Origin: an uncultured Candidatus Rokubacteria bacterium
Lineage (GTDB): Bacteria > Methylomirabilota > Methylomirabilia > Rokubacteriales > CSP1-6
Direction of reading: 5' to 3'
Assembly (NCBI GenBank): GCA_963848005.1
Contig: CAWKCA010000011.1
Span: forward strand, 1 to 50,779
Length of the DNA stretch: 50,779 bases
Made by a program: the position numbers and the translations under genes. Below are positions 3,110 through 50,508 of the stretch, in pieces. Numbering within the stretch: position 1 is the first letter of the stretch; the number at the start of each line of letters is the position of its first letter. Under the pieces are notes generated by a model. The model was not told the DNA's origin, did not search any database, and saw nothing but the letters and a program-made list of their open reading frames with translations.

Positions 3110-3509
3110 GAGGAATCCTCCTCGTGACGTGACGCGCGGCTCAGCCGCCGGAACCCGGCTCCCACAGATGCCCTCGGTGTTGCCCGCACGGTCGCCAGAG
3201 TGAGGATACGACAGCGCTGGTTCCTCGCCGACAACGACGATCGCAGACCCACAAGGTCACCGTGCCTCGTTGCCGCCTTTCGACCACGCGAGTCCTTGAT
3301 CATGATGGTCCCGTCGGAGGCCAGCCACACGAGCAGGATCGTCCTGATCAACCGCGCCACCGGCGGATGGTGGCGCAGCCGTGAGACGGATGCCAAGGAG
3401 GCGCGCGCGGTCCGCGCATGCGCCCTGGAGGAGCCGCCTGAACGCGCGACCCCGTGGTACAACCGGCGCGAACAGGGGCCGCGCCGCCGCTCAGGAGGAG
3501 GACAGCCGA

Positions 3510-38059: not shown

Positions 38060-39209
38060 ATGCCAGATCGCCTCATCTCCGGCGACAACCACATCGACCT
38101 CACCTACCTGCCGCCCGACCTGTGGTCGTCGCAGGCTCCGGCCAAGTGGAAGCTGCTGGTGCCCCGCGTGGAGGAGCTGGAGGACGGCCTCCACTGGTTC
38201 GTGGAGGCGCAGGACAAGGGGATGTGGAACGGGGTGGGGCCCGGGTTCCTCAAGTATCAGCGGGGCATGTTCGGCCACATCGACGAGATGAAGGACATCG
38301 GCTTCGAGTGGGACAACCGTCCGGGCGCCAAGCCCCGGCCCACCACAGCCCGAGCTGCGGCTGGCCGACCTCGATCGCGACGGCATCCAGGCGGAGATCA
38401 TCTACGGCTGCCTGATGATCAACGACCTCATCGACACCGGCGAGCGGCGCGCCTGGGCGGACAAGATCTACAACGACTGGGCCGCGGACTTCGCCAAGCG
38501 CTCCGACCCCGACCGGGTCTTCCCGCTCGCCATCATCCCCAACAACGACCCCATCGAGGCCGCCGCCGAGGTGCGGCGCTGCGCCAAGATGGGGCTGCGC
38601 GGCGGCGATCTGGCCTTCAAGCGCATGACCCCGCCCCTCTATCACGACGGCTGGTACCCCCTCTGGGAGGCGGCCGCGGAGTGCCGTTTCCCGATCTCCT
38701 TCCACTCCACGGGCTTCAAGGGGCTGCGCGCGCCGGACACTCCGCAGATGGAGCAGGAGTACCTGACGCAGTGGCGCCTGGTGCGGTCGGCCCTGTTCCA
38801 GCTCGACACCATGGAAGTGCTCGTGTCGGTGATCGCCTCGGGGGCCTGCGAGAAGTACCCCGACTTCAACTTCGTCCTCGGCGAGTCGGGGGTGACCTGG
38901 CTGCCCTACGTGTTCGACCGCCTGGACACCGAGTACAACGACCGGGCGCGCGCCCTGGGCTTCTCCCTGAAGCCCAGCGACTATTTCCGGCGCCAGGGCT
39001 ACGTCACGTATCAGCAAGACCAGTACCTGGAGCCGATCATCCCGCTCATCGGCGAGGACACCATCATCTGGGGCGCCGACTATCCGCATCCCGACTGCAT
39101 CTGGCCCAACTCGCAACAGACGCTCCAGAAGAACCTCGCCGGCGTGCCGGACCGCGTCCGTCGAAAGATCACCTCGGAGAACGTGACCCGGCTCTACCAC
39201 CTGTCCTGA
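38060..39209 (+). CDS. Amidohydrolase-2 (PF04909, ACMSD-like) family metal-dependent hydrolase, one frameshift near 38335
   Basis: N-terminal ISGDNHIDL and a C-terminal WGADYPHPD motif are present. The body is in frame 38415..39209. Confidence 0.7.
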
Positions 39210-40245: not shown

Positions 40246-40563
40246 ATGCTGGCGATCTGGGTGAAGGTCCGCATCAAGCCGGGGGAGCGGGAGCGGTTCT
40301 TGAAGGCCATCGAGGTGGACGCCCTTGGCTCGGAGAAGGACGAGCCCGGCTGTCTGCGCTTCAACGTCCTCCAGGACGCGAAGGACGACAACGTCTACTA
40401 CTTCTACGAGGTCTACAAGGACGAGGCGGCCCTGGAGGCCCATCGGGCCGCGCCCCACTACGCCGTCTGGCGCGCCGCCGCCGACTCCCTGGATGGACCG
40501 ACGGAGCCGGTCCGCTGCAAGCCCGTCTTCCCGGCCGCCCGCCCCTACTGGGGAAAGGTCTGA
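40246..40563 (+). CDS. Antibiotic-biosynthesis-monooxygenase (ABM) domain protein
   Basis: 105-aa ORF with an ABM ferredoxin-like fold signature (CLRFNVLQD...YYFYEVYKDEAALEAH). RBS GAGGAGGG lies upstream. Confidence 0.7.
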   Translation: MLAIWVKVRIKPGERERFLKAIEVDALGSEKDEPGCLRFNVLQDAKDDNVYYFYEVYKDEAALEAHRAAPHYAVWRAAADSLDGPTEPVRCKPVFPAARPYWGKV

Positions 40564-40851
40564 CGTTCGCACTCCGGGGCACTCTCAGCCGGCGGCGCGC
40601 GCACGGCCCGCCGCCGTGCCGAGCTTCGCGGACCGGATGGTTCCCATCGCGAGCCACCGCGCCGCCTCCCAGCTCAGACCGAGCGAGATAGGCGGCGCGG
40701 CGGCGCCGCCCATCCCCGCAACGCCGGACCAGCTCCGAAAGCGCAAGATGCTGAAAGGAAAGGGCAGGGGGCAGGAATGGACATCGAGGCCCGGCCACGA
40801 TAGGCGCCAGACAACCTCGCGGTCCCCGCGCTACGCAGGTCAGCCTATCCA

Positions 40852-41349
40852 GTGGCCGAATTCAAGTTCGGCAGATCAAGGGCATCTCCGTACGCGAAAC
40901 GAAGGCCCGAACGGGAGGCGGCATTGACGCAGAAAGACTTCTTCGCAATCCTCGGCGCTCCGCTCGTCAATCCGCGCTGGTCCTGGGGTGCCGTCAGGAA
41001 GTCTGACGGTGCCGTCATTCTTCGAGTCTGGAAAGACGACCTACGAGCCCACAACGGCCGCGACTTCGTCCGGATCAACTGGAAGTCTCGGCGCGCCACT
41101 GATCGGGTCAGCCACGGCCGTCGCGAAAGAGTGGAGCACGTGGAACGCATCATGGGTGGTGCACCGTCCTACCTGATCATGTGCGAGGCCGAAGATCCAC
41201 GCGCGAAGCCACGTCGGGTCAAGCGGTTCAACTCTGAGGAGATCTTCCCTGGTGGCGCGGTGCAAGAACTCGATGACGGCTGGTGGGTGGAGATCCGGTC
41301 TGGCCTGCCAGTCGCCCAGTTTACGAAGGGAAGGACACGCCGTCGATGA
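40852..41349 (+). CDS. Hypothetical protein (no family recognised)
   Basis: Stop-free 165-aa frame in a locally lower-GC stretch. Codon use is protein-like but not recognised. Confidence 0.3.
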   Translation: MAEFKFGRSRASPYAKRRPEREAALTQKDFFAILGAPLVNPRWSWGAVRKSDGAVILRVWKDDLRAHNGRDFVRINWKSRRATDRVSHGRRERVEHVERIMGGAPSYLIMCEAEDPRAKPRRVKRFNSEEIFPGGAVQELDDGWWVEIRSGLPVAQFTKGRTRRR

Positions 41350-41470
41350 ACCTGAGCGGCATCGCCACGGCCAACCGATACGCGGGGGGCTTAGGAGGGA
41401 GGACCGAGTGGCGTGGTTTCAGTGCAGGCGCGGCCAGACGCAAATCGTGACACGTCGCCAAGAGCCGACT

Positions 41471-41553
41471 GCCGAACATCACGCTCCAGCGGTCCGGCGG
41501 GCTCGCGTTGCTCGCTCGCCGGCCGCTGAGCGTGGGCGTTCGCCGCACAGACA
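41471..41553 (+). promoter_or_regulatory. Conserved ~80-nt upstream element, copy A (upstream of SBP1)
   Basis: GCCGAACATCACGCTCCAGCGGTCCGGCGGGCTCGCGTTGCTCGCTCGCCGGCCGCTGAGCGTGGGCGTTCGCCGCACAGAC. It contains the inverted repeat CAGCGG..CCGCTG and the boxes GCGTTGCTCG / GGCGTTCGCCG. Confidence 0.6.
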
Positions 41554-41611
41554 GAGGGCTCAGGCGTGAAGTGCGCCGGCGGCCGCCGTCGGCAACGAGG
41601 TTGCGAGATCG

Positions 41612-42628
41612 ATGAACCCACTGCTTCACCCAGCTAATCGTCTCCTGGGTGCGTATCGGAGTTGGAGCATCCATCTCGGCGCCCTCGCTCTTGCTCTCAT
41701 TTTCCTGGCCGCGTCGCTCGCCGCCACGGCCCAGCAACTGCCACGGAAGGTCGGGTTTTTGGGCGACGTGCCTCCGTTCATCGACGAGGCATTCCGGCAA
41801 GGGCTCCGTGAGCTGGGCTACGTCGAAGGTCAGAACATCGCGATCGAGCATCGGGCTCCCGATTGGAAGTATGAGCGGCTACCGGCGCTCGCTGCCGAGC
41901 TCGTTCGCCTCAAGGTGGACGTCATCGTTGCCGCATCCCCGCCCGCTACGGAGGCCGCCAAACAGGCGACCAGCACGATCCCTATTGTCTTCACTGTCTC
42001 CGGCGACCCCGTCGCTGAGGGATTTGTCGCCAGCCTTGCCCGGCCCGGCGGCAACATCACCGGGCTGGCCACCATTAGCCCGGAGCTGGTGGGAAAGCAG
42101 TTGGAGATGCTCAAAGCGATCGCCCCCAAAGTCTCCCGGGTGGCCGTTCTTCATAACCCGGACCAGCGGGCGCACCCGCGCGCCTTGCGACAGGCAGAGG
42201 ATGCCGCACGGTCCCTCGGGGTGCAGCTTCAAATCCTCGGAGCGCGCACTCCTTCCGAGATCGAGGCAGCGTTCGCAGCGATGATCAGCCAGCGCGCGGG
42301 CGGTGTCCTCGTCCTGCGGGATGCGGTGTTCCGTGCGCAGCGAGCCCAGATCACCGCCCTCGCCGCCAAGAGCCGCCTCCCGGCAATGTACGGGCTCAGG
42401 GAGGAGGCGGAGGCAGGCGGCCTTATCGCCTATGGAGCGAGCGTTCCTCAGCTGTTCCGACGCGCCGCACTCTACGTCGATAAGATCCTCAAGGGCGCTC
42501 AGCCTGCCGACCTTCCCGTCGAGCAGCCGACGAAGTTCGAGCTCGTGATCAACATGAAGACCGCGAAACGGCTGGGCGTGACGGTTCCGCAGTCATTGCT
42601 GCTCCAAGCGGATCAGGTGATCGAATGA
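41612..42628 (+). CDS. ABC_sub_bind-type (PF04392-like) orphan substrate-binding protein, paralog 1
   Basis: Intact ORF with a signal peptide and the C-terminal signature LPVEQPTKFELVINMKTAKRLGVTVPQSLLLQADQVIE. Confidence 0.75.
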   Translation: MNPLLHPANRLLGAYRSWSIHLGALALALIFLAASLAATAQQLPRKVGFLGDVPPFIDEAFRQGLRELGYVEGQNIAIEHRAPDWKYERLPALAAELVRLKVDVIVAASPPATEAAKQATSTIPIVFTVSGDPVAEGFVASLARPGGNITGLATISPELVGKQLEMLKAIAPKVSRVAVLHNPDQRAHPRALRQAEDAARSLGVQLQILGARTPSEIEAAFAAMISQRAGGVLVLRDAVFRAQRAQITALAAKSRLPAMYGLREEAEAGGLIAYGASVPQLFRRAALYVDKILKGAQPADLPVEQPTKFELVINMKTAKRLGVTVPQSLLLQADQVIE

Positions 42629-42651
42629 CGGACAAGCGGTAGTGGCGCGCA

Positions 42652-42733
42652 GGGCGTCGAACTTCAGCTTCCAGCGGACGGCGCCTCGCGTTGCTCGGTG
42701 CCGCCGCTGAAGCTGGCGTTGGGCTTCGCGACG
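42652..42733 (+). promoter_or_regulatory. Conserved upstream element, copy B (upstream of SBP2)
   Basis: GGGCGTCGAACTTCAGCTTCCAGCGGACGGCGCCTCGCGTTGCTCGGTGCCGCCGCTGAAGCTGGCGTTGGGCTTCGCGAC. Confidence 0.6.
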
Positions 42734-43729
42734 ACGGTTGGGGGAACGGTGACTAAGACGTCGGCTGCTCTGACCCTCGCCCTCGCGCTCCTCACTGCGC
42801 CGATTCCCGCAAGGGCTCAGCCGGCGGGGATCGCTCGGATCGGCTGGCTCGGTCTCCCTAGTCAGGCTGCCAACGCCGACCTCGTCTCAGGATTTCGGGA
42901 AGGGCTCCGAGAGTTCGGATACACGGAAGGAAGGAACCTCGCCATCGAGTATCGCTTCGCAGAGGGGCGGAGTGAACGACTGGCAAACCTAGCGGTCGAG
43001 CTGGTCGGCCTGCCCGTGAGCGCCATCGTCGTCACCTCGGCCCAGGCAGCGATTGCGGCCAAGCGAGCGACCGCGACGATCCCGATCGTCCTGGTGACGG
43101 TGGGCGATCCTGTCGGTATAGGGTTGATCGCCAGCCTTGCCAAGCCTGGCGGCAACGTCACGGGAGTCTCCTCTGCTCAAGAAGACTTCTCAGCGAAATT
43201 GCTGGGACTGCTGCGGGAGGTTGTACCGGGGGCCTCTCTGCTTGCCTACCTCGATGATCTCGATAGTCCCATCGCGCGGATTCACTGGAAGAACATACAG
43301 GGCGCTGGACGGACGCTCGGCGTGGCGGTGCAGGTCTTTTCCGTCACCAAGCCCGATGCCGTCGAGCCCCAACTGATCGCAATCAGCCGGGCGCGGGTCC
43401 AGGGCATTGTCGTAGGACCGACTCCGATACCCCGTACCAGACAAAAGGAGATCGTAGAGTTTGCCGCCCGAAACCGGCTTCCCGCAATCTATGCAGGCCG
43501 GGACTATGTTGTTTCCGGAGGACTGATGTCGTACAACCCGAATCGCCCTGGAATGGGACGGCAAGGCGCGATCTACGTCGGCAAGATTCTTCAGGGGGCA
43601 AAACCCGCCGATCTTCCTGTCGAGCAGCCCACTAAGATCGAATTCGTGATTAACCTGAAGGCGGCGAAGGCGTTGGGGCTAACGATCCCGCAATCAGTGC
43701 TGCTGCGAGCCGACGAAATCGTCGAGTGA
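42698..43729 (+). CDS. ABC_sub_bind-type orphan substrate-binding protein, paralog 2
   Basis: Intact ORF with the same C-terminal signature (LPVEQPTKIEFVINLKAAKALGLTIPQSVLLRADEIVE). The true start is probably downstream of 42698, after the element. Confidence 0.7.
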   Translation: MPPLKLALGFATTVGGTVTKTSAALTLALALLTAPIPARAQPAGIARIGWLGLPSQAANADLVSGFREGLREFGYTEGRNLAIEYRFAEGRSERLANLAVELVGLPVSAIVVTSAQAAIAAKRATATIPIVLVTVGDPVGIGLIASLAKPGGNVTGVSSAQEDFSAKLLGLLREVVPGASLLAYLDDLDSPIARIHWKNIQGAGRTLGVAVQVFSVTKPDAVEPQLIAISRARVQGIVVGPTPIPRTRQKEIVEFAARNRLPAIYAGRDYVVSGGLMSYNPNRPGMGRQGAIYVGKILQGAKPADLPVEQPTKIEFVINLKAAKALGLTIPQSVLLRADEIVE

Positions 43730-43750
43730 CGACCAGCCTCTCATGCCAAG

Positions 43751-43826
43751 GCGCCGCGAACCTCAACTTCGGTATATAGCCGCCGGCCTGCGGCCGCGGC
43801 TGATACGTGGCGTTCGCCGTACAGGC
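43751..43826 (+). promoter_or_regulatory. Conserved upstream element, degenerate copy D (upstream of SBP3)
   Basis: The 3' half CGGCCGCGGCTGATACGTGGCGTTCGCCGTACAGG matches the consensus. Confidence 0.45.
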
Positions 43827-43869
43827 CGGTTGGTCAGGAGCGGTGATAGGGCCGAGGGAGGGAGCGGCG

Positions 43870-44875
43870 ATGTGCGCTAGTTGGGCCGGCCGCGCGAGAC
43901 CGATAGTCCATCGCGGCGCCTTCGCCCTTGCCCTGATCATTCTCGCGTCTTCGCTCGGCGCCTCGGCGCAGCAGGCGGGGAAGGTATATCGGATCGGGTT
44001 TCTCGGCGGCGCATCTGCCGGAGACGTCCCGCTCCCGAGCCTTCGCGAGGGCTTGCGTGAACTCGGTTATGTCCAGGGCAAGAACGTTGCTTTTGAATAT
44101 CGATTCGCCGAGGACAAGAACGAGCGGCTCCCGGGCCTCGCCGCGGAACTGGTTCGCAGCAAGGTGGACGTCATCCTGCCGCATGGATCACCGGCGACCC
44201 GCGCCGCCAAGCAGGCGACGAACACGATTCCTATCGTCATGGTGGGTGCCGGTGATCCGGTGGGGACGGGATTTGTCGTCAGTCTCGCCCGCCCCGGCGG
44301 CAACGTTACCGGGCTGTCCACCATCTCCGCGGGCTTGGCCGCGAAACGTCTGGAGCTCCTCAAGGGAGCCGTGCCGAAGCTCCAGGGTGGCCGTGCTCTG
44401 GAATCCGGCCAACCCGAGTGGCAGGCCGCAGCTTAAAGAGACCGAGGCCGCGGCCCGCTCGCTGGACATCGAAACCCAACTTGTCGAAGTGCGAGATCCC
44501 AAGGAGTTAGAAAGCGCCTTCGCCGCGATGCTCAAGGCTCGCGCCGGCGCTTTCACTGTGATCGCGGACCCCTTGTTTCTCAGCCAACGGAGACGAATTG
44601 CAGACCTCGGGATGACGAAAGGACTGCCTTCAGTCTTCGCGCGGAATGAAAATGTGGAAGCCGGGGGGCTGATGTCCTATGGCCCCATCTTGGCCGACCT
44701 GTTTCGGCACGCCGCCGTCTACGTGGACAAGATTCTCAAGGGTGCGAAGCCCGAAGATCTGCCGGTTGAGGAGCCGACAAGGATGCATCTGGTGATCAAT
44801 CAGAAGACCGCCAAGGCACTGGGTCTCACCATTCCGCACGAACTGCTGCGGCGCGCCGATCAGGTGATCGAATGA
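43870..44875 (+). CDS. ABC_sub_bind-type orphan substrate-binding protein, paralog 3, one frameshift near 44385
   Basis: Signal peptide, family core, and the C-terminal LPVEEPTRMHLVINQKTAKALGLTIPHELLRRADQVIE in frame 44057..44875. Confidence 0.7.
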
Positions 44876-45004
44876 TCGCTCGGCAGCCTTCGGGTCGATC
44901 CGCGAGGTCACGGCCAGGCAGACTGCCCGGGCGAAGGCAGATCATCGGGCCGGCCACACACCGCGCGTGCGTGCCGCCCGCGCGAATGAGCGTCGGCTTC
45001 AATC

Positions 45005-45083
45005 GGGCGTCGAACATGGCAGTGGAGCGGCCGGCGCGCATTCGCTCGCCGCCGCCGCTCACTGCCAGCGTTCGCCGCACACT
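45005..45083 (+). promoter_or_regulatory. Conserved upstream element, copy F (upstream of SBP4)
   Basis: GGGCGTCGAACATGGCAGTGGAGCGGCCGGCGCGCATTCGCTCGCCGCCGCCGCTCACTGCCAGCGTTCGCCGCACACTGA. Stem arms GCAGTGGAGCGGC / GCCGCTCACTGC show compensatory changes relative to copy A. Confidence 0.6.
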
Positions 45084-45189
45084 GAAAGGGATCGAGGCCG
45101 TCGGCACGACCATCGGTTCGTCAACAGGTCGCGAGATCGATAGAATCCGAGAGCTGCCGTGCGAGCTGCTATCGGGCCGAAGACGTCGA

Positions 45190-46166
45190 GGCGTCGGTAA
45201 TGCGTCTTTGCGCCATGGCGCTCCTCCTACTCCTTTCCGGTCTCTTGCTTGTCGCCGAGATCCAGTCTGCGGGGCGCTGCCGACGGTCGGGTACCTCCTC
45301 GCCGGCCCGTCACAGTGCAAGCTCGCTCCGCGGGACGAGGCCTTCTACCAAGGCCTCCGCGATTTGGGTTATATCCCCGGCCAGAACATCACAGTGGACC
45401 GCAGGTGCTTCAGCACGGGCGACGAGATGCGCAACGTGTTGCGCGGGTTCGTCAACCGTAGGTGGACGTCATCTTCGTGGCCGCCCCCGCACTGGCCTTG
45501 GCGGCCGAACCGCCACCAGGCAGATTCCAATCGTGTGCAGCTCCTGTGGCGATCCTCGAAAACGGCCTTGTGGCCAGCCTGGCTCGCCCGGGAGGAAACG
45601 TCACCGGGCTGGCGAGCCAGTCGGCGGAGCTCATCGGGAAGCGGGTCGACTGCTGAGAGAGGCGGTTCCAAGAGTCTCCGCGTCGCAGCCCTCCTGAACC
45701 CGGACAACCCGGGAACTCGCCCGACATTGAAGGCTCTCGACGAAGCCGGCCGCGCCCTGGGCATCCAGATTCAGCGAGTAGAGTTTCGAAACGTCGGCGA
45801 GCTTGACAAGGCCTTCCGATCGGCAGCGACAGGGGGTGCCACCGCGGTCCTGGTACAGGACGACCCACACGCCCTCGCCGGCCGAATCAATCGCGGAGTT
45901 CGCCCTGGGCACCGCCTTCCTGCGGTCGCCGGCGTTCCCAAATACGCCGAGGCAGGCGGCCTGATCGCGTACGGTCCCAGCCGAAGCGACCTGTACCGGC
46001 GCGCCGCCACGTTCGTCGACAAGATCCTCAAGGGCGCGAAGCCTGGCGACCTCCCATCGAGCAACCGACGAAGTACGACTTGATCATCAATCTCAAAACG
46101 GCCAAGGCGATCGGCTTGACGATACCGCCGTCGCTGCTGCTGCAGGCGGACAGGGTCATTCAATGA
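45190..46166 (+). pseudogene. ABC_sub_bind-type substrate-binding protein, paralog 4, many frame disruptions
   Basis: Family blocks ([105 protein letters not shown]) are scattered over three frames. Confidence 0.55.
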
Positions 46167-46246
46167 CCCAAGACTGGAAGCGCCCTCGAAGTTCAGCACA
46201 CCCGCTTGCAGAGCGTGATGCAGCACCGGCTGAGTGCCGCACCGCG

Positions 46247-46312
46247 GGGCGTCGAACTGCGCGGTGCAGCGGCCCGGCTACGCCGGCCGCTGACCGCAGC
46301 GTTCGGCGGATC
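46247..46312 (+). promoter_or_regulatory. Conserved element, partial copy E (between SBP4 and hicB-like)
   Basis: GGGCGTCGAACTGCGCGGTGCAGCGGCCCGGCTACGCCGGCCGCTGACCGCAGCGTTCGGCGGATC. The palindrome CAGCGGCC..GGCCGCTG is kept but the GCGTTGCTCG box is missing. Confidence 0.5.
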
Positions 46313-46339
46313 TGCCCAAGGAGCCGGTGCCAGGGCTGT

Positions 46340-46576
46340 ACACTCATGACCCGGAGGCCATGAAAGCTGGATAACGTTCAAGGTGGAGATCGAGCGGGAA
46401 GACGACGGCCGTTGGCTCGCAGAGGTCGTCAGCTTCCCGGGCATGCTGGCGACGGCGAGACGCAGGAGACGGCCCTATCAAGGGTTCAGGCTCTGGCCCT
46501 CCGCGTGATCGCCGAGCGGTTCGAGCACGGCGAGGCCGGATCTGACCTGCTGAGCATCTCCTTCAACGCGGCGTGA
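46340..46576 (+). CDS. hicB: HicB-family antitoxin-like protein, one frameshift
   Basis: ITFKVEIEREDDGRWLAEVVSFPGMLA then, after a +1 shift, GETQETALSRVQALALRVIAERFEHGEAGSDLLSISFNAA. Both match the HicB / UPF0150 pattern. Confidence 0.55.
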
Positions 46577-46603
46577 ACGGCGGCCAGTACCCGCTATCGC
46601 CGG

Positions 46604-46760
46604 GTGTCGGCGGCCCTCCTGAAAACCCGCTGGGTGGTCAAGCGTCAGTCTGGTTCGCACCAAACGTTATCCCGCTCAGGATGGGCCGACTTCGTGTTTT
46701 CCTTTCACGACGACGAGGAGATCGGGCCCCGAATACTGTCCGGGATCGCGAACCCACCGG
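46604..46760 (+). CDS. hicA: HicA-family mRNA-interferase toxin-like protein (3' end uncertain)
   Basis: SAALLKTRWVVKRQSGSHQTLSRSGWADFVFSFHDDEEIGPRILSGIA matches the HicA (YcfA) motif GW..R..GSH. GTG start at 46604. Confidence 0.55.
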
Positions 46761-46920
46761 CTTGCGGCCCGGGACCTGTGAGCCCGCCATACCGCCGAAC
46801 CAGCCACTGGAGCGGACCGGCTTGGCCGGCCGCTCGCCGGCAGCGTTGCGTCGGGGCGACGCACGACGGCGTCGTCGGAACCGAGTGGGGATAAGGCCTG
46901 CTCCCCGCCTCCGGTGAGCA

Positions 46921-46998
46921 GCCGAACGCGCCGCTCCGGCGGACCGGCGGATCGCGTTGCTCGCCCCTCGGCTGCTGAGCACCGGCGTTCGCCAGAGT
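46921..46998 (+). promoter_or_regulatory. Conserved upstream element, copy C (about 215 nt upstream of amidase)
   Basis: GCCGAACGCGCCGCTCCGGCGGACCGGCGGATCGCGTTGCTCGCCCCTCGGCTGCTGAGCACCGGCGTTCGCCAGAGTAG. Confidence 0.6.
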
Positions 46999-47212
46999 AG
47001 TCGATCAGAGATCGAAGGATCCACAAGAGGCGGGAAGGTGCTCCAATCGACATCACGAACCCGGAGCCGTTGCCGCTTCCTGCTTGGGGCCGCGCTCCTC
47101 GGAACTGCGCGGATCATCGCTGAACCGGAGACGCCTGGAGCACCATCGCCGAATGGCCTCAGGCGGGCACCAAGGTAAGGCGAAGGACAGGAGCCCGCAG
47201 GGAGGACCGCAC

Positions 47213-48668
47213 GTGGCTGATCTGTCGTTCACGCCGGCTGTGGAGCTGCTCAGGCTCTACCGGGCGGGCAAGGTCTCGCCGCTGGAGGTCATGGAGGCGG
47301 TGCTCGCCCGGATCGACGCCGTGAACCCGCGGGTGAACGCCATGGTGACCATCGCCCGCGAGTCGGCCCGGCGCGAGGCCCGCCGGGCCACCGCCGCCCT
47401 GCGCCGGCGGGCCTCGCTGCCGCCGCTCTTCGGGGTGCCCGTCGGCATCAAGGACGTCACGCCGACCCGCGGCATCCGCACGACCTATGGATCGACGCTC
47501 TACGCCGATCACGTGCCGGAGGAGGACGCGCTGGTGGTCGAGCGCCTGCGCGCCGCCGGCGCCATCGTGATCGGCAAGACGAACACGCCGGAGTTCGCCT
47601 TCGGCCCCAACACGGTCAACGCGCTGTTCGGGGCCACGCGCAACCCGTGGAATCCGGCCCTCAGCGCGGGCGGGTCCAGCGGGGGCTCGGCAGCGGCGCT
47701 CGCCACCGGCATGTGCACGCTGGCCGAGGGCACCGACCTCGGGGGCTCCCTCCGCGGGCCGGCTTCCTTCTGCGGGGTGGTGGGGTTCCGCACGACCCCC
47801 GGGCTGATCCCGCGATACCCGTCCGTGCTGGCGTGGGACACGTACTCGGTGGAGGGCCCGATGGCGCGGTCCGTCGCGGACACGGCCCTGATGCTCTCGG
47901 TGATGGCCGGCCCCGACGACCGGGCGCCCCGTCTCCTACCCCGTCGATCCGCGTGAGTTCGTGCGAGCGGTGCGGGCGCCCTCGATCAAGGGCTGCCGCA
48001 TCGCGTGGACGCCCGATCTCGGCGGGCTGGTGCCGGTCGATCGCGAGGTGCAGGCCGTGTTCGAGCGCGCGGTCGGGGTGTTCCGGGCGGCCGGGGCCCG
48101 CACGGAGGCGGCCTGCCCCGACATGAGCGACGTGCCGGAGATCGTGCGGCTCACCCGCGGGCTCCTCATGGTCGCCCGCCACGCCGACAAGCTCCCGCAG
48201 CACCGCGCCGTCCTCCAGGCGGGACTGGTGGAGAACACCGACCAGGGGCTCGCCCTGTCCGCGCGGGAGATCGCCGAGGGCGAGCTCCTGCGCACGCGGC
48301 AGTGGCAGCGGGTGCGCGAGTTCCTGGCCCGGCGCGACCTCTGGGTGACGCCGACGGCGGCGGTGCCCCCGTTCCCCATCGGAGAGCCACACGCGATCGA
48401 GGTGAACGGCCAGCCCCTGGGCAAGGGGATGGCGCGCTCGTACCTGACCTACGCGTTCTCGGTGCTCGGCCTGCCGGCGATCTCCATCCCGGCCGGCTTC
48501 ACCGGGACCGGGCTCCCGGTGGGGCTCCAGATCGTCGGCAAGCCCCGGGGCGAGGCCGCCGTCCTTCGGGCGGCCGCGGCCTTCGAGGCCGCCCACCCCT
48601 GGGCTCACCGCGTTCCTCCGGTGGTCAGCGCCGAGTCATGCGTCGAACCCTCGCGCCAACCGCGCTAG
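47213..48668 (+). CDS. Amidase-signature family amidase (GatA-like), one frameshift near 47940
   Basis: GIKD..GGSSGGSAAALA and Ser-cisSer-Lys region motifs are present. The C-terminal half is in frame 47961..48668. GTG start with a GGGAGGA RBS. Confidence 0.75.
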
Positions 48669-48685
48669 GATGAAACGTCACGACG

Positions 48686-49217
48686 ATGCAGACCCTTCGG
48701 ACGCTCGCTCTCGGCCTCGCCCTCGTGCTTACGGGCTGCCGGATTCCGTTCATCTCCGTCGACCCGGCCGCCGTGACCCAGCTCAGGGACGCCAGCGGGC
48801 GCGTGGTGGGAAAAGCCGTGCTCGCTCAGGACAACGGATCGGTGCGGATCGTCCTCGACGTCATCGGGCTGACCAAGGGGGACAAGGGCGTGCACATTCA
48901 CGAGGTCGGGAAGTGCGATCCCCCGGGGTTCGAGTCGGCCGGCGACCACTTCAATCCCACGAAGGCCCAGCACGGCAGTACCAATCCGAAGGGACCTCAC
49001 GCCGGCGACCTGCCCAACATCACCATTGACGCGAACGGGCGAGGGCATCTCGAGGCCACGCTCAAGCGAGTGTCCATCGAGAAAGGCAGCGCGTCGCTCT
49101 TCGACGCCGACGGGAGCGCCATCGTCATCCATGCCGATCCCGACGACCTGAGCACGGACCCCAGCGGAAACAGCGGCGCGCGGATCAGCGTGCGGGGTGA
49201 TCGTGCGCGGGAATTGA
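48686..49217 (+). CDS. sodC: Cu/Zn superoxide dismutase lipoprotein, one frameshift near 49186
   Basis: Lipobox LTGC. Copper-ligand region GVHIHEVGKCD..GDHFNP..HAGDLPNI and the terminal ACGVIVRGN* (in the adjacent frame) are present. It is not in the ORF track because the read-through frame runs off the window. Confidence 0.75.
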
Positions 49218-49317
49218 GGGCATGGGGGGCTCGGGCGCCCCCCAAACCCCCAGCGCTGGCCACGAGGGTCGCGACGGGGCGCGTGGGGATCGGCTCCATG
49301 AGCGCGGAGGTGACAGC

Positions 49318-50508
49318 ATGCTCGCGTCCATCAGCGAGATCCTCGACGACCTGCGCCGGGCCGCCCATCATCCTGGTGGATGACGAGGACCGCGAGAACG
49401 AGGGCGACCTGGTGTGCCCGGCGGAGAAGGTCACGCCGGAGATCATCAACTTCATGACGCGCCACACCCCGGGCTATCTGTGCGTGGCGCTCGCCGCCGC
49501 CGACTGCGACCGTCTCGAGCTCCACCCCCAGGCCGCCTCGAACACGTCGCTGCGCGGCACCGCGATGGCCGTGTCGGTGGACGGGCATCCCCGCCACGGC
49601 GTGGGCACGGGCATCTCGGCGTCGGACCGGGCGCGCACGGCCCGCCTGCTGGCGAACCCGGCCGCGGCCGGACGACCTGGTCCGGCCCGGCCACATGGTG
49701 CCGCTGCGGGCCGGGACGGCGGCGTCCTGGTGCGCACCGGACAGACCGAGGGATCGGTGGACTCGCGGCTCGCCGGGCTCAACCCGGCCGCGGTCATCAG
49801 CGAGGTGTGCCGCGAGGACGGCGAGATGGCCCGCATGCCGGACCTCGAGGTCTTCGCCCGGCGAGTCCGGGCTCCGGATGTGCTCGGTCGAGCAGATCAT
49901 CCACCATCGCCTCGGGCGCGAGCGCCTCGTCCACCGCCTGCCGCCCGGCGAGGGCATGCCGATCGACACCGACCACGGCCGGTTCAACCTCATCGCCTAC
50001 CAGAGCGTGGTCGACCGCCTGCCTCACCTGGCCTTCTGCGCCGGCGACGTGGGCCGCTCGACCCGTCGGGTCACCCGCTCGAGACCCAGAGCCGACGCTG
50101 GTCCGGATGCACCGGCGCGACCTGCTGGGCGACGTGTTCGGCGACAAGGCGAACCCGTCCAACCAGGTGCTGGCCGCCTCGCTGCGCCGGATCCAGGCCG
50201 AGGGCCACGGCGTGGTCGTCTACCTCAGGCCCGAAGGGACCGGTGAGGGCTGTCCGGCTCCTGCAGGCCTGGATGTATCCCCCCTGGCCGGCGGCCGAGG
50301 GCGCCCTCGGCGGCGACCTCACCGGGGCTGAGGGCCGGGGCGCGGGCGATGCCATGAACCGCCGCGACTTCGGCATCGGCGGCCAGATCCTGCGCGATCT
50401 CGGGCTCCGGCAGCTCCCGGGTCCTCACCAACAGCCCGAAGCGGCTGCACCATCTCCAGGCGTTCGGTCTCGAAGTGGTCGAGACCGTCCACATCGAGGG
50501 GCTGTAGG
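49318..50508 (+). pseudogene. ribBA: Bifunctional RibBA-like (DHBP synthase / GTP cyclohydrolase II-like), at least 3 frameshifts
   Basis: DHBP-synthase motifs (DDEDRENEGDLV, TGQTEGSVDL) and C-terminal cyclohydrolase-II-like RDFGIGGQILRDLGL..LTNSPKRL are spread over three frames. Probably indel errors. Confidence 0.65.

Follow-up and report, generated by a model that had tools for sequence, protein, structure and literature searches.

Seven hairpin elements and the units between them

The stretch of DNA analyzed here (the window) comprises 50,779 bp of the forward strand of contig CAWKCA010000011.1, from an uncultured Candidatus Rokubacteria bacterium (assembly GCA_963848005.1), and has a GC content of 68.6%. 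Between positions 41469 and 46995 it carries seven copies of an element of 61-78 nt, every one on the + strand, set between small gene units, four of which encode paralogous substrate-binding proteins (SBPs) of the ABC_sub_bind family. These elements, which are very probably attC sites of the integron system, and the array that they form are the subject of this report. The copies are listed below in their order along the window; the bit scores are those of R1, a covariance model of related elements from other genomes that contains no window sequence (described in the next section), and R'' and R' denote the outer core sites at the 5' and 3' ends of the element.

Copy A, 41469-41546, + strand: probable attC site, intact; 63.9 bits (25.5 bits on the - strand)
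Copy B, 42654-42726, + strand: probable attC site, R' mutated to GTTGG, apical loop TCGCGTTGCTC; 61.4 bits
Copy C, 43753-43820, + strand: probable attC site, degenerate; 21.9 bits, E 3e-4
Copy D, 45007-45078, + strand: probable attC site, intact, variable stem GGCAGTG/CACTGCC; 60.1 bits
Copy E, 46249-46309, + strand: probable attC site, intact, 3-nt loop; 54.5 bits
Copy G, 46792-46854, + strand: probable attC site, degenerate, variable stem broken, R' = GTTGC; 37.6 bits
Copy F, 46919-46995, + strand: probable attC site, the last of the array, inner box pairing via G-T only, apical loop TCGCGTTGCTC; 44.2 bits

Read 5' to 3', the first arm of the element consists of GCCGAAC (R''), one or two unpaired nucleotides, a variable stem of 6-7 bp, a bulge, the inner box SAGCGG and another bulge; the remainder consists of a GC-rich stem/loop, CCGCTS, the complement of the variable stem, 2-4 unpaired nucleotides and GTTCGSC (R'). 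In copy A, R'' (GCCGAAC) occupies 41471-41477 and R' (GTTCGCC) 41538-41544, and the apical loop is again TCGCGTTGCTC. The variable stem differs in sequence from copy to copy with its complementarity kept, and the AAC and GTT triplets of the core sites are present in all seven copies. The bulges, seen in copies A, B, D, E, F and G, are two single bases around SAGCGG; they lie on the 5' arm when the top strand is read and on the 3' arm when the bottom strand is. Copy C has additional bases in its 5' arm and an inner box altered to AGCCG/CGGCT. The 5' half-pattern of the element was matched eight times in the window (0.65 expected) and the 3' half-pattern three times (0.04 expected).

A first-pass annotation of this DNA, made from the sequence alone, had reported six copies. 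All six (A to F) are present where it placed them, with E-values from 1e-16 to 3e-4; the true number is seven, copy G, which was also detected as a repeat family, having been overlooked. The CAGCGG..CCGCTG inverted repeat described there is present as part of a longer palindrome, in which the outer CGAAC/GTTCG and the 6-7 bp variable stem pair too. The pair of compensatory arms GCAGTGGAGCGGC..GCCGCTCACTGC attributed to copy F is real and belongs to copy D. The two boxes that had been taken for direct repeats do not repeat one another: copies A, B and F have GCGTTGCTCG as their apical loop, and GGCGTTCGCCG corresponds to R', the core site at the 3' end. The proposal of a conserved hairpin maintained through compensatory changes, finally, is borne out by stems that differ in sequence and remain complementary.

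The units between the elements, all on the + strand, are as follows.

40852..41349, +: ORF165 (from the list of open reading frames, ORFs), hypothetical protein, the first cassette-like unit
41612..42628, +: SBP1, intact ABC_sub_bind gene with a signal peptide (Pfam PF04392, 157.6 bits)
42749..43729, +: SBP2, intact ABC_sub_bind gene with a GTG start (Pfam PF04392, 144.9 bits)
43870..44875, +: SBP3, ABC_sub_bind gene with one frameshift near 44378 (Pfam matches on both halves)
45200..46166, +: SBP4, ABC_sub_bind remnant with at least six frame changes (three-frame translation; tblastn pieces in alternating frames)
46349..46790, +: hicB-like antitoxin and hicA-like toxin genes, degraded and both frameshifted (reconstructed translations)

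The order of the array is thus ORF165, attC, SBP1, attC, SBP2, attC, SBP3, attC, SBP4 remnant, attC, hicBA remnant, attC, an empty unit of 142 bp without an ORF (from copy G to copy F), attC. Successive copies are spaced 1185, 1099, 1254, 1242, 543 and 127 bp apart, and each starts 12-132 nt past the stop codon of the unit on its left (only 24-27 nt for SBP1 and SBP2). Stable GC-rich hairpins shortly past stop codons would suit intrinsic transcription terminators between genes; however, a T-run follows none of the seven hairpins, a terminator has no need of the conservation of CGAAC/GTTCG and SAGCGG/CCGCTS in sequence across phyla, and the elements are associated with integrases (see below), so that terminators are an exceedingly improbable explanation.

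The SBP paralogs are 45-58% identical in protein (SBP2 and SBP1, 45%) and about 65% identical in DNA. The frame change of SBP3 was placed by tblastn at 44375-44382. The reconstructed hic translations match HicA_toxin (PF07927) at 27.1 bits and a UPF0150-like family at 19.3 bits. ORF165 matched no Pfam family, the metagenome scan gave no relatives of it, and no attC was found upstream of it; GC around this ORF drops to 0.63. Over 40.8-46.8 kb as a whole, GC is 0.61-0.67 (0.68-0.755 in the flanks) and GC3, the GC content at third codon positions, is about 0.76 (above 0.9 in the flanks).

Four paralogous SBP genes in tandem raise the thought that the elements are left-over intergenic sequence, co-duplicated with the genes and without function, the more so since cassettes 1, 3 and 4 share the start TTCGCCGCACA after the predicted crossover point (see below). 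With genes this divergent, however, one could no longer align neutral spacers, whereas a model from other phyla gives the elements scores of 54-64 bits; moreover, their stems differ through compensatory changes, and elements follow units that are not SBP genes (ORF165, hicBA and the empty cassette). We therefore give co-duplication very little credence.

Relatives of the element, their structure and their integrases

As the first-pass annotation had proposed, we searched for the motif in relatives, and found the element in many phyla with unrelated small ORFs beside it. The pattern CGAAC-N9-SAGCGG-N10-40-CCGCTS-N8-10-GTTCG, scanned against one genome per species, gave more than 119 loci among the matches listed; the hosts listed belong to Acidobacteriota, Rokubacteria/Methylomirabilota, Planctomycetota, Verrucomicrobiota, Cyanobacteria, Desulfobacterota and several Proteobacteria. 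A register-specific complementarity filter kept 48 non-window elements from the raw matches, nearly all of which pass on a single strand, and the alignment of 43 of these 48 became R1. Run on the window, R1 found exactly the seven copies listed above, all on the + strand; the four best copies score 54-64 bits on that strand, as against 22-27 bits on the - strand, where the other three gave no score. There was no eighth copy in the remaining ~44 kb of the window, where the best other match of R1 scored 16.8 bits. Since all copies lie in one cluster on one strand, the elements are clustered and polar rather than dispersed, and the same polarity holds in other genomes: in all 24 of the 24 loci with at least two copies, a sequence-only profile placed every copy on one strand.

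This polarity bears on a second alternative, that the element is a dispersed palindrome of the repetitive extragenic palindrome (REP) or bacterial interspersed mosaic element (BIME) kind, mobilized by a RAYT-type transposase or serving as an mRNA stabilizer. The element is indeed a short GC-rich intergenic palindrome in several copies. However, a span of 5.5 kb takes in all seven copies, and the other 44 kb of the window are free of them; the copies use one strand only, here and in the 24 multi-copy loci; elsewhere the element has an integron integrase, not a RAYT, as its neighbor; and R1 also detects clinical attC sites (see below). A REP-like origin is accordingly hard to credit.

The alignment and covariation test that had likewise been proposed was carried out, and the stems covary well above shuffled alignments. 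Among 127 related elements, in an alignment fitted to the model and hence biased towards structure, 91.3% of cells were paired and 443 were changed on both sides (148 ± 10 in shuffles); controls with slid partners fell to 19-36% paired. A hand-built seed alignment, its sequences pre-filtered for at least five of seven Watson-Crick pairs in the variable stem, had 93% of cells paired and 128 changed on both sides (44 in shuffles). The four variable-stem columns of the 127 elements held no G-U pair in any of 508 cells, only Watson-Crick types and mismatches. Covariation free of G-U pairs fits a DNA hairpin and is unusual for a structured RNA; it thus points to DNA as the molecule that folds. At the fourth position of the R box, 72 of the 127 elements have a G-C pair and 12 the canonical U-A; loop length varies across related elements from 3 nt upward.

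Folded as bottom-strand DNA, copies A, D and E are markedly stable (z of -5.2, -6.45 and -5.0), with their bulges on the 3' arm; the values for the weaker copies are -2.1 (B), -2.4 (G), -1.4 (C) and -1.4 (F). Copies C, G and F are structurally degraded. Folded as RNA, copies A, B, D and E are also stable (z of -2.8 to -4.6); a scan of the whole window against Rfam returned zero family matches.

The relatives link the element to integrons. A tblastn search of the fetched loci with IntI1 found homologues of 50-72% identity a few kb from the elements in L001, L077, L084, L114, L067, L098 and L093, the numbers being our labels for loci. On NCBIfam TIGR02249, "integron integrase" (cut-off 265), used afterwards to validate such matches, the proteins of L001, L077 and L114 score 454-499 bits; taken together with L146, TIGR02249 integrases beside arrays of the same element score 381-499 bits in four loci. 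The arrays begin 0.4-1 kb from intI in L001, L084, L077 and L114, which hold seven, six, five and three R1 sites, respectively, and the adjoining L027 and L053, from one Acidobacteriota chromosome, have more than 20 copies together. As a side observation, the integrase lies upstream of the cassettes and co-oriented with them in L001, L077, L084 and L067 (Acidobacteriota, Rokubacteria and Synechococcus) and is divergent, the classical arrangement, in L114, L098 and L093; the attC type of these three is as in the co-oriented loci.

The model also recognizes textbook sites. The aadA1 attC, whose sequence has matches in 2,515 plasmids, lies directly after aadA1 in the class 1 integron of plasmid R100, adjoining intI1. 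R1, with no clinical sequence in it, places this site on the correct strand with its bulges aligned (44.1 bits, E 3e-11), and detects a second clinical attC at 37.7 bits in the right place and on the right strand; these scores are comparable to those of window copies F and G. The length of attC sites ranges roughly from 57 to 141 bp, and the window copies, at 61-78 nt, fall inside this range. Two degenerate cassette-PCR primers, HS287 (GCSGCTKANCTCVRRCGTTAGSC) and HS286 (TCSGCTKGARCGAMTTGTTAGVC), were designed on conserved attC sequence (PMC10963911, PMC2669170); the 3' half of copy A matches HS287 at 20 of 23 positions, and its 5' half matches the reverse complement of HS286 at 18 of 23. The AAC and GTT triplets of R'' and R', present throughout the window family, are the most conserved attC positions and important ones (PMC4889954).

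To see how far the element follows the SBP genes, 80 metagenome loci were gathered by SBP1 protein similarity alone. R1 matched in nine of the 80, with 24 of 24 matches on the strand of the SBP gene; the remaining 71 were without the element by R1, a count that overstates true absence because some contigs are short. Where elements and SBP genes do meet, the genes look like cassettes: in L028, L088, L002, L104 and L108 they are single units between two elements and co-oriented with them, and L135 and L179 have tandem SBP cassettes like those of the window. In L146, an intI (386-1354; TIGR02249, 380.5 bits) is followed directly downstream by an SBP gene (1639-2634) and then by an attC (3313-3386); the integrase of this locus has an internal gap of ~33 residues relative to the TIGR02249 model. 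Because most SBP1-relative loci lack it, the element is not a property of SBP genes; rather, some SBP genes are cassette cargo. L126, L127 and L128 encode the proteins closest to SBP1; their DNA resembles the window over 41710-42601, a stretch that lies within the ORF and stops short of the cassette boundaries, which indicates that cassette and non-cassette SBP copies share the coding core only.

These loci also bear on the idea, favored by the first-pass annotation, of a regulon made up of the ABC_sub_bind genes and the amidase gene beyond the last copy, in which the element would act in cis as an operator or form a structured RNA leader at the 5' end. Its starting point is sound as to position: an element does stand ahead of every SBP paralog and of the amidase. 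The one ahead of the amidase, however, is the terminal attC of the array, 220 nt away from a gene of different composition. That the hairpins of four copies are stable as RNA too, and that SBP genes recur by the element in Rokubacteria loci, would also suit a regulon. Yet elements follow ORF165 and the hicBA remnant as well, and one pair of copies, 127 bp apart, encloses no gene; integron integrases of Acidobacteriota, Planctomycetota, Cyanobacteria and others have arrays of the element beside them, all copies on one strand, among small ORFs that are unrelated; and the SBP1-relative loci without the element include the closest relatives. Against an RNA leader in particular stand the lack of any Rfam match and the lack of G-U pairs in the variable-stem columns. 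Neither the shared regulon nor the leader was borne out, and we consider both most unlikely.

The integrase itself is missing from this locus: IntI1 and three environmental IntI queries gave only sub-threshold matches (E > 0.2) in the window, which extends 41 kb upstream and 3.8 kb downstream of the array. The published definition of a CALIN (cluster of attC sites lacking an integron integrase) asks for two or more attC sites on the same strand, separated by less than 4 kb, and for the lack of an intI in the vicinity (PMC4889954). The window has seven + strand sites in 5.5 kb, at spacings of 127-1254 bp, and no integrase. Shared sequence, structure and context, together with the lack of a nearby intI, make the array a CALIN by the published definition, and we hold with high confidence that the seven elements are integron attC sites (59-base elements) in such an array.

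Several points weigh against this reading, or against parts of it. The R 7-mers (GCCGAAC/GTTCGGC) fit RYYYAAC/GTTRRRY at six of seven positions, the deviation of the fourth base being compensatory, and the spacer between R and L is mostly paired here and unpaired in clinical attCs. Recognition by an attC covariance model is of the reciprocal kind, R1 matching clinical sites. The closest SBP1 relatives (L126, L127 and L128, at 87%, 87% and 77% identity) gave no R1 match even with filters off. No integrase, attI or cassette promoter (Pc) was identifiable in the window, and the activity of the array is unproven. The "pseudogene" status of SBP3, too, may be a sequencing artifact, given the frameshifts in flanking housekeeping genes (see below).

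Loop, flanks and possible history of the array

The 11-nt apical loop TCGCGTTGCTC is invariant at 41503-41513 (copy A), 42686-42696 (copy B) and 46952-46962 (copy F), and recurs at L001:3133 and 4626, L002:4599, L007:1484, L033:2492, L047:142, L088:1458 and 3435, L094:5178 and L100:2983. In ~1 Mb of fetched DNA the exact sequence occurs 14 times, 13 of them at attC apices. It is closed by covarying stems of differing sequence, in hosts belonging to Acidobacteriota, Rokubacteria/Methylomirabilota, Vicinamibacteria and Gemmatimonadales. The apical loop of attC sites is usually variable in sequence and size (PMC8352920). In the literature searched there was no mention of SBP cassettes and no paper that combined Rokubacteria with attC. 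Two features go beyond an ordinary CALIN, namely the subfamily of attC sites with the TCGCGTTGCTC loop and the orphan ABC_sub_bind genes that recur as single-gene cassettes, often in tandem, in Rokubacteria-type integrons. It is conceivable, if rather doubtful, that the loop reflects sequence-specific recognition by a partner, which might be an integrase clade or some host factor, or else a template shared in the genesis of cassettes, and that the SBP cassettes make integrons a platform for the diversification of nutrient-scavenging receptors.

The genes on either side of the array are as follows.

40246..40563, + strand: left flank, ABM-domain (antibiotic biosynthesis monooxygenase) gene (Pfam PF03992, 71.6 bits; GC3 0.93, host-like)
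47215..48670, + strand: amidase (Pfam PF01425 on both halves; one frameshift at 47956/47961; GC 0.74-0.755)
48686..49230, + strand: right flank, Cu/Zn superoxide dismutase gene sodC, with a C-terminal frameshift (SodC motifs in the translation)
49414-50331: ribBA, after sodC (GTP_cyclohydro2 match)

The amidase is not a cassette of the array: R1 found no attC after it in the window, and its GC is very different. It begins 220 nt past the last element. It also lies within the segment absent from the syntenic relative described below, with a very high GC and no attC behind it. Frameshifts occur in the conserved flanking genes at about one per kb: in Amidohydro_2 (38060-39209), the amidase (47956-47961), sodC (~49200-49230) and ribBA (49414-50331). 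These suggest assembly indels across the contig, and because they affect flanking housekeeping genes too, single frameshifts within the array (as in SBP3) may be assembly or sequencing artifacts. With all four integrase queries, 16 residues encoded at 47022-47069 of the - strand, RLRVRDVDWSTFPPLV, showed a weak resemblance (E > 1) to the LRVxDLD region of integron integrases; the stretch was rejected as an integrase remnant, having no Pfam support and not being collinear with the other weak match, and is taken as chance.

The flanking aldo-keto reductase has homologues of 80-86% identity that carry the names Candidatus Rokuibacteriota or Methylomirabilota. Among the three contigs of such homologues that were inspected, P0006 (85% identity in the aldo-keto reductase) has the same upstream gene order followed by ABM-Sod_Cu-RibBA, and the other two (P0024 and P0080) are not syntenic. 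By comparison with P0006, a single syntenic relative known by its gene order, the array appears to lie in an insertion of ~8 kb between the ABM gene and sodC. At 40565-40570, 2 nt past the ABM stop and where GC begins falling, stands GTTCGC, the same as the attC R' core; it may be the left crossover junction, a 6-mer by itself not being significant.

Each attC would be the 3' end of the cassette on its left. As is usual in integrons, two integrase monomers would be placed on the folded site by its paired core (R'' GCCGAAC, R' GTTCGGC), its inner box and both extrahelical bases. By the established biology of integrons, the bottom strand, when single-stranded, would fold into the hairpin that is the recombination substrate, and the integrase would cut between the G and TT of R' (PMC8352920, PMC4889954). 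Applied to the window, this G/TT rule predicts cassette boundaries at 41538/9, 42718/9, 43812/3, 45070/1, 46301/2, 46845/6 and 46987/8, and hence cassette lengths of 1180, 1094, 1258, 1231, 544 and 142 bp. Recombination between two attC sites would excise a cassette as a circle, and recombination of an attC with attI or a secondary site would insert one. The suggestion of the first-pass annotation that the elements were the recombination substrate that built the SBP array is, on this scheme, essentially correct; what has to be amended is the process, which would be site-specific and integrase-mediated at attC rather than homologous recombination between repeats.

With no local integrase, the array would be mobilizable only in trans. 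It also seems to be decaying, as attC sites C, G and F are degraded and SBP4 and hicBA survive as remnants. It may have originated through loss of, or separation from, its integron, or through insertion at a secondary genomic site; insertion of cassettes at such sites has been described (10.1101/2022.09.11.507474).

The array beside known integrons and repeats

Taken as a CALIN, the locus has its apparent SBP regulon signal re-labelled as the punctuation of a mobile element. The four SBP genes, ORF165 and the hicBA remnant would then be accessory gene cassettes and not a co-regulated operon, and annotation should follow. Integron cassette arrays would thereby be documented in an uncultured soil phylum (Rokubacteria/Methylomirabilota), with SBPs as recurrent cargo. 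Secreted proteins are enriched among cassettes (PMC10661359), and recurrent periplasmic SBP cargo fits this published enrichment.

The window sites have the same layout as attC sites of the soil/freshwater and Xanthomonadales-Pseudomonas type (the HS286/HS287 consensus and the aadA1 attC): a 7-bp R'' ending in AAC, an 8-nt spacer/L'', a bulge, a 6-bp box, a bulge, a stem-loop, GCSGCTKA, and R' from GTT. The inner box reads MAGCSG in the classic consensus and SAGCGG in the window family. As with classic attC sites, the elements lie at the 3' end of an ORF, on the coding strand. The fourth R-box pair, in contrast, is G-C here (GCCGAAC/GTTCGGC) and T-A in the classic site (GCCTAAC/GTTAGGC), both being found in related arrays; the spacer by the R box is largely paired here, whereas the classic site has an unpaired central spacer; and three window copies (A, B and F), unlike classic attC sites, have an apical loop conserved in sequence.

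REP and BIME sequences resemble the elements as short, GC-rich, repeated intergenic hairpins. They are, however, found genome-wide, often in alternating orientation and linked to RAYT, whereas the window elements are clustered on one strand, at cassette-length spacing, and belong to a family associated with integrases.

A closer likeness is offered by the Vibrio cholerae superintegron with its VCR repeats, where attC sites are homogeneous within the array and paralogous cassettes and toxin-antitoxin cassettes occur, as in the window array. Next to such sedentary chromosomal integrons, the window array is far smaller and lacks an integrase beside it, and its sites and genes are partly degraded. 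From CALINs as described by Cury et al. (2016; PMC4889954) nothing essential sets it apart: it holds no antibiotic-resistance cassettes, and it has seven sites where the average is about five. The attC site and the CALIN are thus a well-known kind of element, and knowledge of integrons is unchanged by this instance.

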